The notes under the pieces were generated by a model. It worked only from the letters and a program-made list of their open reading frames with translations. It was not told the DNA's origin and ran no database searches. A stretch of DNA of 64,000 nucleotides, from NCBI GenBank assembly GCA_964016885.1, contig OZ024740.1, positions 89,900,001 through 89,964,000 on the forward strand. Reading direction: 5' to 3'. The stretch is from Eledone cirrhosa (lineage: Eukaryota). Both the position numbers and the translations under genes were made by a program. Below are positions 9,838 to 63,273 of this stretch, piece after piece; the first letter of the stretch is position 1, and every line of letters begins with the position of its first letter.

Positions 9838-10120
9838 TATATATAATGTATATATATATATATATATATATATATATATATATATATATATATATATATA
9901 TATATATACATATATATATATACATATATATATATATATATATATATATATATATATATATATATATATATATATATATATATATATATATATATATATA
10001 TATATATATATATATATATATATATATACATATATACGTATATATATATATATATATATATATATATATATATATATATGTGTGTGTGTATGTATATATA
10101 TATATATATATATATAATAT
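9838..10120. repeat. Long (TA)n microsatellite (one of many in the window)
   Basis: Seen directly. Confidence 0.95.
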
Positions 10121-10320
10121 AAGATCAAAAGATGGTTAAAGGAGTTCCATGTATTTTATTATGCGCACTTCAAAAACAAACATCATCATGCAATAATATT
10201 TCTGTTTTCATCAGATAAAACAGGAGAACATGATATGAAGGCTAAAAAACACTTGTGGATAGTGCAATTTTAAATCAACATATGCTTTATTGTACCACAA
10301 TAAAACTCCCCTCCTACATT
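10120..10320. mobile_element. Two-tailed PLE-end insertion with HHR (10156-10218, -)
   Basis: Minus strand reads TTAT-CTGATGA-long stem II-GAAG-TGCGCA-TA-ATAA. The right end ACAATAAAACTCCCCTCCTAC matches the long tail of 16805-17116. Confidence 0.75.
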
Positions 10321-10526
10321 ATATATATATATATATATATATATATATATATATATATATATATATATATATATATATATATATATATATATATATATAT
10401 ATATATATATATATATATATGTATATATATATATATTTATATATATATATATATATATATATATATATATATATATATAGACACACACACACACACGCAC
10501 GCACACACATTCACACACACACACAA

Positions 10527-11812
10527 ACATCTGAAACTACTTCGCTTATCTTATTCGATATATAGTCCGTCGCTCCCATGTGGAAAGGGTACGTTGAGTG
10601 CTTGAATTGAATTGCATCAATGTTTACCTTAAGAATTTACCTCCAAAGTTGACCTCTCTATGGTGTAACCCATATAGTGGAGAAGAGAGAAACCAACCAT
10701 AAGCTACACCCGGAAATTCCCTCTACCATGGGGATTGATTACACACACTGGAAATCCCTGCTACTGGACGGACATGAAATTATAAACTAACTTTCGACAG
10801 GATAAATATGCGGAACTAAAAACAACGATAAACCCCTTATTTTCCTGCAGCAAATTGCATTTGCACAGAAGCATTGAACGGAAGCCCCCTCACTTCATCC
10901 GATAACCAATTGTTATATGCACTTTACATGGACAAAATTTACAATCATTTTAAACACTCATTTCCATACAGTTTAGCTTCCTCGTATAAGTTTCTCTTAT
11001 ATATCTCTTATCTCATATTGCATTTGTTTTTTGTATTTTTTGTATCTTACAATTTCTATTTTTTGCTTTGATTGATGTGATAGGGATATGAACTATGCAT
11101 TTGCTTAATTACTACGTTTCATACTATAATTTACCCTCCGTTCTACTGTATCGTTCAATATATGGATAATATATCTGTAATATTGATACCCCTTTCAAAA
11201 CTTCTTACTATAATTTAAACATCTCCCTATTTATTAGTTATTATATGTATACATTTTTTTCCTTACTTGAATCAAGATTTTAACTTGTAATTTTTTAAAA
11301 TTTCTAATATCATAATTTCCACTGTGAAACCATAATACCTAGAAATAAGTATATATTCTCTTAGCGGTTGATGGTCAAGTATATTGTCCAAGCGTAATTT
11401 AGGGTAGTATTGAGACCTATTGAAACACATACTCTCCCACCCCACCAGGTGTCGGCCAACTGCCACTGGCAGGGCGACTAGCAGGAAACTATAACCATGT
11501 CATATTACAGACCTTGATGGGGTAGTTGATGGTCAACTTTCTTTGGACTTGCGGCTGCGCAGACATGTGGGGGCGAATCGGTACTCACAAGGGACCGTGC
11601 GAAGGATTCAAGAGCACACGCTTTGTCCGTTCCTTTGTCGTTCCCTTGTCGTTTCCTTTTGGATTGCCTCGTAAACATAACCTTATTATGTAAGAAGCTG
11701 TCTGATGATGTCACGGCACTGGGCGTGTGGCCAATGTCGTCATTGAAATATGTATCACAGCATTCTCATTAGAGGAATTTAACATCTGAAACTACTTCGC
11801 TTTTCTTATTTT
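10527..11812 (+). mobile_element. Degenerate or internally deleted PLE with terminal direct repeat
   Basis: ACATCTGAAACTACTTCGCTT(A/T)TCTTATT occurs at ~10527 and ~11782. A canonical HHR lies just before the second copy and the element ends in (TA)n. Confidence 0.6.
11697..11761 (+). ncRNA. Type I hammerhead ribozyme
   Basis: GCTGT-CTGATGA-stem II-GAAA-TATGTA-TC-ACAGC. Perfect 5-bp stem I and canonical core, with predicted cleavage after 11756. Confidence 0.85.
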
Positions 11813-12424
11813 ATATATATATATATATATATATATATATATATATATATATATATATATATATATATATTTATATATATATATAAAATCAACAATAAAA
11901 TTAAGCAGTAAAACCTAATTTTAACGATGATAAAATCAAAGGATCAAGAAAATTTACCTAATATTGGACGTATGCTCGAACTATTGAAGTTGATTTTACT
12001 ATATTTCTTTTTGCAACATGTGTGTATGCATATTATACGTCAACATAGAATTTCGTTGCATGGTCCTCATTTTAATCACACATTGCTTGTGCGAAGGCTA
12101 CTTAAATTTGTGTAACCAGTACACAAATGATATTCATTTGTGAATCGATTCCAAAATATTTAAAACAAGGTTTCAAAGTATTGCTTATATCACACTTAAT
12201 ATTTATGTATATTACATGTATGCTTTTGGCAATATCAATAATATATTACCTGGTTTATACATAATTTATTCTGAAACCCACAACATTTTTGGTTATTGTA
12301 TTACAGTCAAAAACATTTACTTTTTCATGTAATATCGAAAATATTTTGAGGATTTGAATATACATACATATATATATTTTATATATATATATATATATAT
12401 ATATATATATATATATATATATAT

Positions 12425-60078: not shown

Positions 60079-61305
60079 CATTATTTACAGTATAAAATGA
60101 TAAAGAAATGAATAAAAATAAACATATAAAATATAATATACTATATAAATATATTAATAATCACCGGTCAACTTGCACAAACAGTATAAATATTACAATA
60201 ACACTATAATAACAATATTATAATATATTGGCATATAACATAACAAGTCATATAAAGTTACATACAGAACTAAATTGTGTTGAAAAGATTCTGCTGGAAA
60301 AATATCTATACCGTTGTAAGAAAACAGACGGAGGTCAAGTTTTTATACAATTGGTATAAATAAGTATTATCTAAACATTACAAAAATTATAAAAATATAA
60401 ACATATTACAGAATTTACAAAATTTAACATAATGGTACATCAATATCAAATAATGAACATAGTATAATATACATAATTACATGGTTATTAGACAGACATA
60501 TGTGAATAAGTGAATAAGAACCAGACAGAAAACTACGTACAGTAGTAAAAAAATATATAAATATAAATAAAATAAAATCAACCGGAAATCGAAAAACAAA
60601 AACAAAAATATTTACTTAGGTGTCACTAGCAGTTAAGTAAACACATTTAGGAAACAAACCCAATAAATGACTAGAAAACCCTATTAAATTAATTAATATT
60701 GCAAGTATTTAAAATATATAATAAGTCAATACAAAATTAGTTATGGTTTAATTAATCAAAATCTCCAAAGCTTAAGATATCTCAATAAGAACATCCAGAA
60801 TAGAATGAAATACTTTACTATCAGTTGAATAACGTTATCTAATAAACATACTTTAAATAGAACTATGGTAGGCCAATGGGGACAGAACAAAGAAATGTAT
60901 GTAGGGTACGAAGGAGCATAAAATCATAATCAATATACTGTATTATACAATAGAAAGGGGCATAAAAGGGAATTGAATATAATTATAGTATAATTGAAGG
61001 GGCGAATGACAAGTGTGTGGGGGTGGGGGGAAGAAGGGGTGGGAAGGAGGGGTGGGGTGGGAAGGGGGTTAATTATCTAAATGAGAATCGAAAATAAAAT
61101 AAAATAAAATAAAATATATAATCAGATATAAACTCATAAGGTGTTAATAGTGAAAGTATAATATTTAAGAAGAAAGATATGGTATGGTAGCCAAAAGACT
61201 ATGAAAGCTAGATCGAAAAGCTGTTAAAAACCAATAAAAATAATAATGATAATGATGGAGGTAAACAAAATGAACCTAAACAAAAAAGATAAGGGAATGT
61301 AGCAG

Positions 61306-62813
61306 CTAATGCATACAATTTACAGTACCAGAACTTTTAGGTTTATAATAAAAGTAAGAATTAGAAATGCCGTGGGGGCAAGACGAGAATATCTCAGACT
61401 TTCTATTAAGTAAGAGTTCCCTAGAGAAAATTATAGAGTGGGTCTCAAGGATACAGAGATTTCAGAATTTGGTGTGTGTTGATAGGTTATTAGAGCGTGC
61501 TACTATTCGCCAATTAAGGCTATATGGTATATTAGCCCCCTTAAGATCCCAGATATGGTGTGCTAAAGAAGTAGAATTCTTAAACTTAACATGTTTAAAA
61601 TTAGAGATATGAGAATTAAACCTAGTCTTAAAAGTGTTAGATGTTGAGCCTACATATGTGCTATTAGAGGAATAAGTTTTAACTACACAAGCATAAACGA
61701 TGTTCTTAGAGAGGCAGTTACCGTTTAAAGGGCAGTTAACACTCACTCTACAGTTACACTTCAGGGTGCTATTAATTGGCTGAAGTAGTGATGCATCCCT
61801 CGTAGGGTTACTATGAGATAAGGTCTGCTCAGGTGGTAAGGCATTTATGGATCTATCCAGACTAGTAGTACGCAGAGAGGAGTAGCCATCCCTAATGTGC
61901 CCATCGTTAGTGCTAGCTAAATGAGAACTAATATTAGGGGTGGTAGAGAATGATAGTTTAATTACATTTTTATTAAAAATACCATGGTATTTATTAATAG
62001 GAGCGACATGTTTCTCTAAGATAGAAAAGAAAGACCTAGGGATGTTAGTTAATACTTCCTGATTATATGGCGGGTTAAAATAAGTATTTAGTCTCCTTCT
62101 ATTTCTATCCTTACCAACTCTACCGTTATCTAATATCCCATTATTATTAAGATCTGGGTTACTACGAGGACTAGTTAAAACCACATTGTTATAATCAGCC
62201 GAAACTCCATTGAGTCTCTTTCTGTTTCTACCTTTAGTATATCTACTGCTATCTGGAATCATATCAAAAGGATTAGGGCTGATAATAGGATCAGTAGAAA
62301 CAACACTATTAGAATTAGATTTAGCATAAGCATCACCACTGAGTGCGCGCTCAGAGCGCCCAACTTGATCCCTAGAACTATTAGATTCACTATTAAGAAT
62401 CCGGTGGCTTAACTTATGGATGGGTTCGGATACACCTATCTGATTTCTACGATTCTTATGCATTCTACTCCCATTCATGGTCATATTATGGGATATTATA
62501 TTATTATTATATGTAAGCGGAGACTTTCTAAGGTTACTATTATTATAATGTATTTTACCAGAGTAACCGGAGCTAGCTAGGGCGTTATTATAGTACTCTG
62601 CATGTGCATTAAATATTCATATGTCCTTAGAGAGTGTGGAAATTCTATTAGATACACCATTAATTATAGAGCTTATCATAGATTTGGGGTGGTTAGAATT
62701 GGGACTAACATAAGAGAGTATTTCATTTGGCTTATGGAAGGGTTTAACACTATTAGTGACCAAGTCCAAAGTCACATCTAAAAAGTTGACCGCTCTATCA
62801 TTTCTATCTATCG
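61306..62813 (-). pseudogene. Truncated PLE ORF (RT thumb, long linker, GIY-YIG)
   Basis: ORFs 62617-62889 and 61462-62484 are in the same frame, and reading continues past TGA 61462 to TAG 61306. Confidence 0.88.
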
Positions 62814-62872
62814 TATATATATATATATATATATATATATATATATATATATGTGTGTGTGTATGTGTGTGT

Positions 62873-63273
62873 GTAGATAAATCTACCAAAATATACGGTA
62901 GTGTCCAATCCGTATGAAAAGCTCAATGTAATCCAAATACCATGAAGAGAGAAGATGTATTCAAAAATGTTTCGATGTAAATCTCAGGAAAACAGAGTCA
63001 AGATAAATTAATAAAAACAATGAATAAAAACAAAGAGACAGTTCCTTATATTAAAAAATGCATCATTTTACGATCGAAATAATTATTTCTGAAGACAGCA
63101 TATATATGTGTAGGTATGTATATTTCCTCTGATAGTTTTTAAAATGTTTACATATATCTATATTATATACATACCAACACACACATATACATCCTGAAAT
63201 GATCGTAAAATGATGTATTTTTTAATATAAGGAATTATTTCTTTGTTTTTATTCATTGTTTTTATTCATTTAT
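62873..63273. mobile_element. Inverted PLE-end insertion with long-stem-II HHR (63083-63213, +)
   Basis: TTATTT-CTGAAGA-100 nt-GAAA-TGATCG-TA-AAATGA. The left arm carries the long tail. Confidence 0.8.

Follow-up and report, generated by a model that had tools for sequence, protein, structure and literature searches.

Paired short and long 3′ ends in (TA)n-targeted Penelope-like insertions of Eledone cirrhosa: a probable case of twin priming on one RNA

A 64,000-nt stretch of the Eledone cirrhosa genome (assembly GCA_964016885.1, 3.0 Gb; contig OZ024740.1, called C1 here, positions 89,900,001 to 89,964,000) is referred to below as the window. Tracts of (TA)n are dense across it, and they contain insertions that derive from endonuclease-containing (EN+) Penelope-like elements (PLEs). 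The inverted pairs of the window were recovered by masked self-comparison. In a two-armed unit the 3′ end of the element stands at both outer boundaries, facing into (TA)n; one boundary carries a short end (S) and the other a long end (L), and positions in an element are counted backward from L. This two-tails-outward layout had been proposed in a first-pass annotation made from the letters of the window, and all eleven units listed there are present, each with one S and one L end (Table 1).

Penelope-like units in the window

The units of family A represent the 3′ end of a young autonomous element. Its unit is ∼3.53 kb long, which is also the tandem spacing, and the genome has many 784-aa open frames, along with a 720-aa open reading frame (ORF) with VIY..YIG. 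The protein has RWR at residue 36, DKT at 116 and no G.K[FY]; the linker has CNCPDRSIC at 571 (CxCX5C), CNLC at 669 and CKH at 697 stand near the C-terminus, and no Cys pair is present between VIY and YIG (no CCHH). The best Foldseek matches of the family A protein model are telomerase reverse transcriptase (TERT) structures, and a PDB sequence search gave nothing relevant. The RWR, DKT and CxCX5C motifs, the C-terminal CxxC and CxH, the missing GxKF/Y and GIY-YIG Cys pair and the (TA)n flanks (on both sides of 34 of 34 two-armed young copies) are all likenesses to the Hydra clade of PLEs as outlined in PMC8557442. By these motifs family A and its relatives would be assigned to that clade, the families being mostly of Hydra type. 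In contrast to the clade as characterized in that paper, the unit is 3.5 kb rather than generally <3 kb, and the hammerhead cores of families A and B are non-canonical. A 31-nt motif of one young family A subfamily is matched exactly 10,317 times in the whole genome, and full units stand three or four in tandem at 437.2 Mb of C1 and at 51.28 Mb of a second contig, C2.

At least seven unrelated hammerhead-bearing families had been claimed for the window. The families do exist, but they are related: ORF pieces of families B, E, F, G and P match family A at 33–47% identity (37–47% for B, E, F and G), and families C and D, in which no ORF was seen, have a hairpin in common with A. ‘Hammerhead-bearing’ also turned out to be loose. 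Our motif scan of the window found two canonical motifs; the Rfam scans returned no hammerhead or other relevant family, only TA-driven miRNA matches under the gathering score, and most small units are truncated within the motif. Predicted cores are canonical in families C, I and K and non-canonical in A (UUGAGAAGA, L173:5430-5535; L-numbers denote sampled genome stretches or loci), B (CAGAAGA, window 14555-14600) and H (UUGAUGG, window 27575-27605). The stem II region is long in the hammerheads of A, C and D. The motif-inferred cleavage site precedes S by 17 nt in A, 23 nt in B, 43 nt in C and 41 nt in E; for D, F and G the distance, judged by eye, is ∼50–60 nt. The tail, measured from S to L, is 80 nt long in A, 92 in B, 89–91 in C, 89 in D, 166–167 in E, 108 in F and ∼130 in G.

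The protein encoded at 27771-30410, which had been put forward as the partner for an in vitro priming assay, does not suit the purpose. It has RVT_1 (3.5e-11) and GIY-YIG (3.2e-4, slightly below the curated cut-off) matches, aligns with the family A protein over 109 residues only (24% identity) and, beside the motifs given in Table 1, has no RW[KR] and no CxCX5C, the motifs of Hydra type. Judged by these features, family H is another clade than A and not the partner of families A–G. The strict CX2-5CxxC (Neptune/Nematis) pattern is unmatched in its linker, where cysteines are present at other spacing. The pseudo-long terminal repeats (pLTRs) of this element, 26726-27798 and 30174-31250, are 98.7% identical, and its tail is 41 nt long.

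Table 1. Penelope-like units and related features of the window (positions counted from its first nucleotide)
Feature	Positions	Strand	Description
Family C unit	10117..10319		S left, L fragment right
Family A unit	12426..12618		short arm reversed at left, long arm (tail ∼80 nt) at right
Family B unit	12661..14621		L left, S right; the S-ended arm extends further 5′ and contains the ORF 3′ end
Family C unit	16806..17115		canonical hammerhead motif at 16847-16909, minus strand; 3′ strand of the S hairpin at 17051
Small family B unit	17132..17236		S left, L right; additional to the first-pass list
Family D unit	19465..19771		L left, S right
Family A unit	26516..26709		S at a different TA word, 8 nt upstream of the one normally used; joint palindromic
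Family H element (different clade)	26726..31250	+	partial tandem; one-armed; L at 31250; 5′ end joins TA with ATA overlap
Intact 879-aa reverse transcriptase + GIY-YIG ORF, family H	27771..30410	+	GPKF, DKG, Cys pair inside GIY-YIG
Small family B unit	36427..36507		S left, L arm of 21 nt right
Family A unit	39122..39296		long arm left, short arm right
Family E unit	44918..46042		L left (tail 167 nt), S right
Family F unit	53686..56113		L left (tail 108 nt), S right
Family G unit	57870..58372		S left; L right, 7 nt short, abutting (CT)n
ORF fragment, Hydra-type element	61462..62616	-	39% identity to family A over 208 aa
Family G unit	62876..63270		L left behind a (TG)-rich run; S right

An array of (AAATAA)n, 440 nt long (window 59639-60078), lies downstream of the minus-strand Hydra-type ORF fragment. 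An 890-nt inverted repeat of ∼90% identity (window 4648-5537 and 8056-8934) encloses several TA tracts and smaller insertions, and a further fold-back adjoins it at 8933-9748.

Pairing of the short and long ends

Pairs were counted in an unbiased sample of 99 stretches of 10 kb from 20 contigs which, together with the window, make up 1.054 Mb; 60 loci retrieved with queries containing a whole unit or a joint were left out of the pair counts. In each of 15 families mapped on real copies the ends form two peaks at ∼1:1. The initial count gave 60 pairs of one L with one S end, a single L/L pair and no S/S pair, with four more pairs having one end at another site; the L/L pair consists of two S + L units divided by a 12-nt TA run. 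With ends bimodal in 15 families, such counts mean that the pairing is beyond chance, and the earlier expectation of recurring end points with short + long pairs enriched was borne out. Fifty of the 60 S + L pairs lie outside the window; L is at the left in 27 of the 60 and at the right in 33. On rechecking 110 single arms we obtained 18 more S + L pairs, no L/L, no S/S and 17 arms at the edge of a stretch.

Forty young family A loci were chosen by an ORF-internal match (40 of 150 listed matches). They comprise 34 S + L pairs, no L/L or S/S pair, one gap and five loci that are one-armed or joined to other DNA. Among 20 family H loci there are ten S + L pairs, eight one-armed copies (four ending at L and four at S) and two unresolved cases. 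For the young family A subfamily, plain patterns matched genome-wide 7247 S ends versus 7518 read-throughs, where a read-through alone does not prove an L end (13 of 14 inspected insertions had one). Within 0-60.5 Mb of C1, 64 of the 65 outward pairs among the matches listed (for two plain patterns, the 97 and 100 places that come first) are S + L, and the exception is a tandem S + L insertion. Thus, S + L pairing is near-exclusive among two-armed units, close to absolute. The first-pass statement that each insertion is two-ended holds in this form only, since one-armed copies make up 8 of the 20 family H loci and up to five of the 40 young family A loci, and include the window element at 26726-31250. 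Such copies also show that ordinary 5′ joining happens alongside the suggested route without a 5′ junction.

A family-blind scan of the same 1.054 Mb returned 105 TA-bounded segments with inverted arms touching a boundary. Twenty-two of these are symmetric, and most of the rest are offset by 40–95 nt, with the offset constant per family. The 22 symmetric TA-flanked inverted repeats belong mostly to separate tail-less families and were not scored as S/S or L/L. TA-flanked symmetric terminal inverted repeats with no tail are present, for instance, at window 39412-39988 and 7699-7935, L042:8618-8788, L055:4051-4219 and L060:26-2289; the families look like miniature DNA-transposon-type elements using the same target.

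Both ends are tied to a TA word, with which each shares 2–5 nt; the first-pass annotation had placed such a word at the short end, where it is indeed present, but it stands at both ends. The S end overlaps a TA word by at least 2 nt in 36 of 45 units (null 0.23) and by at least 3 nt in 30 of 45 (null 0.12), copies within one family not being independent in this test. Seven families (A, B, F, G, H, K and R) have copies that read through L, and in all seven the sequence that follows is TA(T). In keeping with the two fixed RNA sites proposed earlier, both ends overlap a UA(U) template word. The long end of both family G units meets (CT)n or (TG)n ahead of the TA run.

The two arms of a unit share one source. 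The position-wise test on young family A copies took 32 pairs, 31 of them with enough overlap, and the own partner arm was closest or tied in 27 of these 31 insertions. The arm difference is 0.37% pooled within an insertion, while the means to other copies are 0.6–4.5%. A first within-versus-between test, in which the own arm was best in 24 of 51 cases, was blurred by short arms and has been superseded by the position-wise one. No TA run was found between paired arms, which, with the common source, contradicts independent insertions split by TA. Of the 34 young family A insertions, 14 have an S arm that extends further 5′ than its partner, 19 have such an L arm, and in one the two are level (p=0.49 versus 1:1). 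A simple fold-back is excluded because either arm can reach further 5′, whereas an L-primed fold-back allows only a longer L arm.

Arm lengths are coupled. Both arms are short in 60 of 65 unselected pairs, and a long arm has a short partner in only 2 of 34; the coupling agrees neither with a stop of each arm at an RNA structure nor with two independently drawn RNAs. Family A arm starts fall at -142 to -128 in 33 of 55 cases, and a single RNA whose 5′ end lay near -142 would account for the coupled lengths; the corresponding 5′-end list of family H, dominated by CA-repeat matches, was disregarded. Taken together, same-source arms and coupled lengths point to twin priming on one RNA.

The 34 joints comprise 17 with microhomology (1–4 nt), 14 with inserted bases, some of which may be polymorphisms versus the reference, and three blunt ones. 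Short-read contigs, possibly from the same sample as the assembly, hold >200 different joints between about -143 and -128, so that the palindromes are not long-read chimeras. As regards a target-site duplication, both flanks of the insertions are (TA)n, and these contigs gave no empty target allele. A few joints are complex: L112:3364-5294 has short tandem re-copying with an 18-nt word three times, L199 a 35-nt insert between arms that stop at the same position and L186 a double inversion. Three loci join different families, with 15 nt of a family P short end bordering an A short arm on its far side (L201:6113-9072), a family M short arm with a family H long end (L092:3882-4002) and an A arm with K sequence (L176:5280-5420). 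Such joins would stem from deletion between adjacent insertions or from two different elements each priming one arm.

A predicted hairpin repeated beside both ends

We add here that both ends in families of Hydra type are followed, a few bases on, by copies of a single predicted hairpin, and that two copies of it lie ahead of the ORF in most related metagenome loci. The consensus of the hairpin 3′ of S is RCUC, a short variable stem–loop, a 1–2 nt bulge starting with U, and GAGY. Of 15 reference copies, 12 have the motif (RCUC-stem-UN-GAGY) within a few nucleotides 3′ of S, as do 4 of 5 family F copies; at random positions the same test passes in 0.9–5.6% of cases, and among the 22 symmetric TA-flanked repeats the pattern is present in one. 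A second copy follows L in families A, B, F, R and G. In family A the two hairpins are 78 nt apart and the tail is 80 nt long.

Metagenome contigs encoding relatives provided 78 loci, of which 47 include the ORF start; 39 of those extend 150 nt or more upstream of it. The hairpin 3′ strand occurs twice, no more and no less, within 200 nt of the ORF in 25 of the 39 loci, with a spacing of 54–82 nt. As controls, the ORF gave 0 of 39 and the antisense strand two copies in 1 of 39. The first inner pair is Watson–Crick in 63 of 65 hairpins (C-G in 45, U-A in 18, that is, with compensatory changes); shuffles gave a mean of 37.8 paired, and 0 of 100000 reached 63. The inner pair ends in G in 29 of 31 second copies versus 13 of 31 first copies. 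The region recurs elsewhere in the contig in 23 rows, and in 13 of them the recurring copy stops 0–8 nt before a hairpin, mostly entering TA-rich sequence. An RNAalifold run on 43 sequences yielded no consensus structure and is uninformative, since the MAFFT alignment placed no gaps in the variable loops; the analysis relied on anchored counts.

In family H, small hairpins of another kind may follow the two ends, TGCT-TCA-AGCA after S and CCTG-AGC-CAGG after L (window 27758-27815 and 31210-31250), and these may be the counterpart of the twin motif.

Twin priming and its alternatives

We consider it likely that these EN+ PLE insertions, mostly of Hydra type, arise by twin priming, with both cut (TA)n strands priming on one RNA at two fixed UA(U) words, each probably positioned by its own hairpin copy. 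A protein dimer would bind the twin hairpins of one RNA, one protomer per hairpin. Each hairpin would be used once, giving exactly one S and one L end and forbidding S/S and L/L. The GIY-YIG endonucleases would nick both strands of (TA)n, and each ...TA-3′ end would pair with the UA(U) beside a hairpin. The two reverse transcriptases (RTs) would copy 5′-wards, the trailing one displacing the leading cDNA; the two cDNA 3′ ends would then be joined, after which each strand could template the other. The tail would be the RNA stretch between the two start sites. For the abundant units of ∼190 nt, the hairpin pair near the RNA 5′ end would be used and both cDNAs would run out near -142; one-armed copies would be events where one end alone primed. 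Binding and priming by the hairpins we infer from sequence. The first-pass interpretation is partly supported: its core held up in each sequence test made, and it was right in outline and partly anticipated in print, but it was without the element that possibly explains exclusivity. ‘Equivalent primers’ alone cannot explain the missing S/S and L/L pairs. Nor does the layout need self-complementary (TA)n, as the same layout is reported with ordinary target duplications in a rotifer (PMC3846280).

If each cut end used a separate RNA, held by an asymmetric complex with one at S and one at L, the same layout would follow and the copying of one RNA twice would be spared. Such dual priming, which we judge improbable, was proposed for L1 (as presented in PMC2837659); transcripts of the same locus would likewise give similar arms, and the two hairpins differ slightly in how often the inner pair ends in G. 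With independent RNAs, however, long arms should frequently have short partners, against the 60 of 65 pairs with both arms short and the 2 of 34 short partners of a long arm. Priming at L followed by a self-primed fold-back, an endonuclease cut at S and a later asymmetric central deletion, with the hairpin acting at the DNA level, would account for S + L exclusivity, identical arms and coupled lengths alike. Some small family A units do have perfectly palindromic joints, and the text of PMC3846280 proposes self-priming from junction palindromes, that of PMC8557442 ascribing the tail to endonuclease resolution. We still hold this route to be unlikely: the S arm is the longer one in 14 of the 34 young insertions, sometimes by kilobases (L172, L182, L187, L194 and L197), the centre is symmetric in only 1 of 34 despite the pooled arm difference of 0.37%, one-armed family H copies are equally divided between S and L ends, and the RT starts at both sites in vitro according to PMC11167929.

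Other explanations take the layout as inherited or accidental. The fold-back unit might itself be a mobile master, so that the layout is not rebuilt per insertion. One joint does recur in many copies, the query itself having contained that joint, but it is found in two subfamilies (L149 and L150 versus L131-L148), the joints all differ among young long copies and those in the short-read contigs number >200; a mobile master is therefore very unlikely. Independent insertions into one TA tract, or palindromes created as assembly artefacts, are hardly credible at all. TA tracts are reused, with many units side by side. Yet independent insertions predict that about half of the pairs would be S/S or L/L, paired arms have no TA run between them and are closest to their own partner, and an artefact is at odds with the joints seen in short-read contigs, even if these possibly come from the same sample.

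Several observations weigh against twin priming at twin hairpins. Among the 110 rechecked single arms, 75 are without a detected partner (many with a degenerate far boundary, some truly one-armed), and one S/S-like unit was seen by eye (L062:6378-6499). Later gene conversion could raise arm similarity. The hairpin was found in 0 of 7 family H and 0 of 22 family K copies, yet both families follow the S + L rule, so that the hairpin is not a universal requirement; of the 39 metagenome loci, six have one hairpin copy and eight have none. Related metagenome loci share ancestry, which inflates the hairpin pair statistics, and inner pairs 2 and 3 are weaker, with a stem of at least 3 in 28 of 65. 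RNAfold folds the isolated L-hairpin of family A (-7.7 kcal/mol) but not the S-hairpin, and neither folds in a 145-nt context. The motif was first spotted by eye in this genome, so that its rate in the reference copies is not a blind test. In the sole PLE tested, start sites were unlike the cut DNA and there was no strand difference, as given in PMC11167929, so that this result leaves S + L exclusivity unexplained.

The layout as such is already published as a PLE pattern (Craig et al. 2021, PMC8557442; Arkhipova et al. 2013, PMC3846280), and in vitro work has shown two RT start sites (PMC11167929). PMC8557442, which also covers the Hydra clade, describes an inverted 5′-truncated copy, a 30–40 bp tail often at one end only and (TA)n targeting. 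The units described here are like the EN+ PLE units of that paper and PMC3846280 in their partial tandems with pLTRs, inverted 5′-truncated copy, tail often on one side and (TA)n preference; a pLTR hammerhead motif, another trait of those units, is here putative; PLE hammerheads are also covered in PMC4209133. They differ in tails of 41–167 nt against 30–40, and in that ‘often’ becomes a near-absolute S + L rule; the explanations offered in those texts are endonuclease resolution or self-priming, against twin priming here. The making of PLE inverted ends, tails and second strand is called open in the passages on it in PMC8557442 and PMC11167929.

The in vitro precedent is PAc (Poseidon, Anolis; Frangieh et al. 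2024, PMC11167929). As its text presents it, two internal RT starts equal the tail ends, both strands are cut and extended, a dimer is predicted and a binding determinant lies near the ORF start, all of which resembles the present case. Unlike the ends here, PAc starts lie in an AC-rich stem–loop that lacks target homology, and they do not differ by strand; in the present units a TA word overlaps both ends and, for families of Hydra type, a separate hairpin copy follows each of them. The main text of the PAc paper reports no per-insertion S + L count. Twin and dual priming were laid out for L1 in PMC2837659, where likewise both target ends prime and the cDNAs join in an inversion, often with microhomology; per that account L1 uses poly(A) and a variable internal site, with internal deletion, as a minority route. 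Here, in contrast, neither priming site varies and both are internal, the two arms are overlapping copies of one region, and the route is the main one in family A. The twin hairpin is not described for the Hydra clade in the searched text and supplement text of PMC8557442, and the accessible part of bioRxiv 10.64898/2026.07.22.740005 makes no mention of tails or priming. In the literature searched we found no account of per-insertion S + L counts or of a twin hairpin; subscription papers or figures may hold one.

Whether the Hydra-clade PLEs as a whole integrate mainly by a programmed two-ended route, in which a duplicated hairpin conserved across distant hosts docks two RTs on one transcript, sets two start sites and forces S + L on each two-armed insertion, we regard as an evenly balanced question. 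With the pairing counts, the published ‘tail often at one end’ becomes a rule by which the models can be told apart. The twin hairpin is a small, mutable cis-element and predicts that tail length tracks hairpin spacing, and family A supplies an intact, very young partner protein. If the programmed route is true, the PLE tail and inverted pLTR would be a direct footprint of two-ended insertion, and twin priming would be normal for a whole retroelement clade. It would also bear on how RNA is anchored by the closest relatives of telomerase RT.

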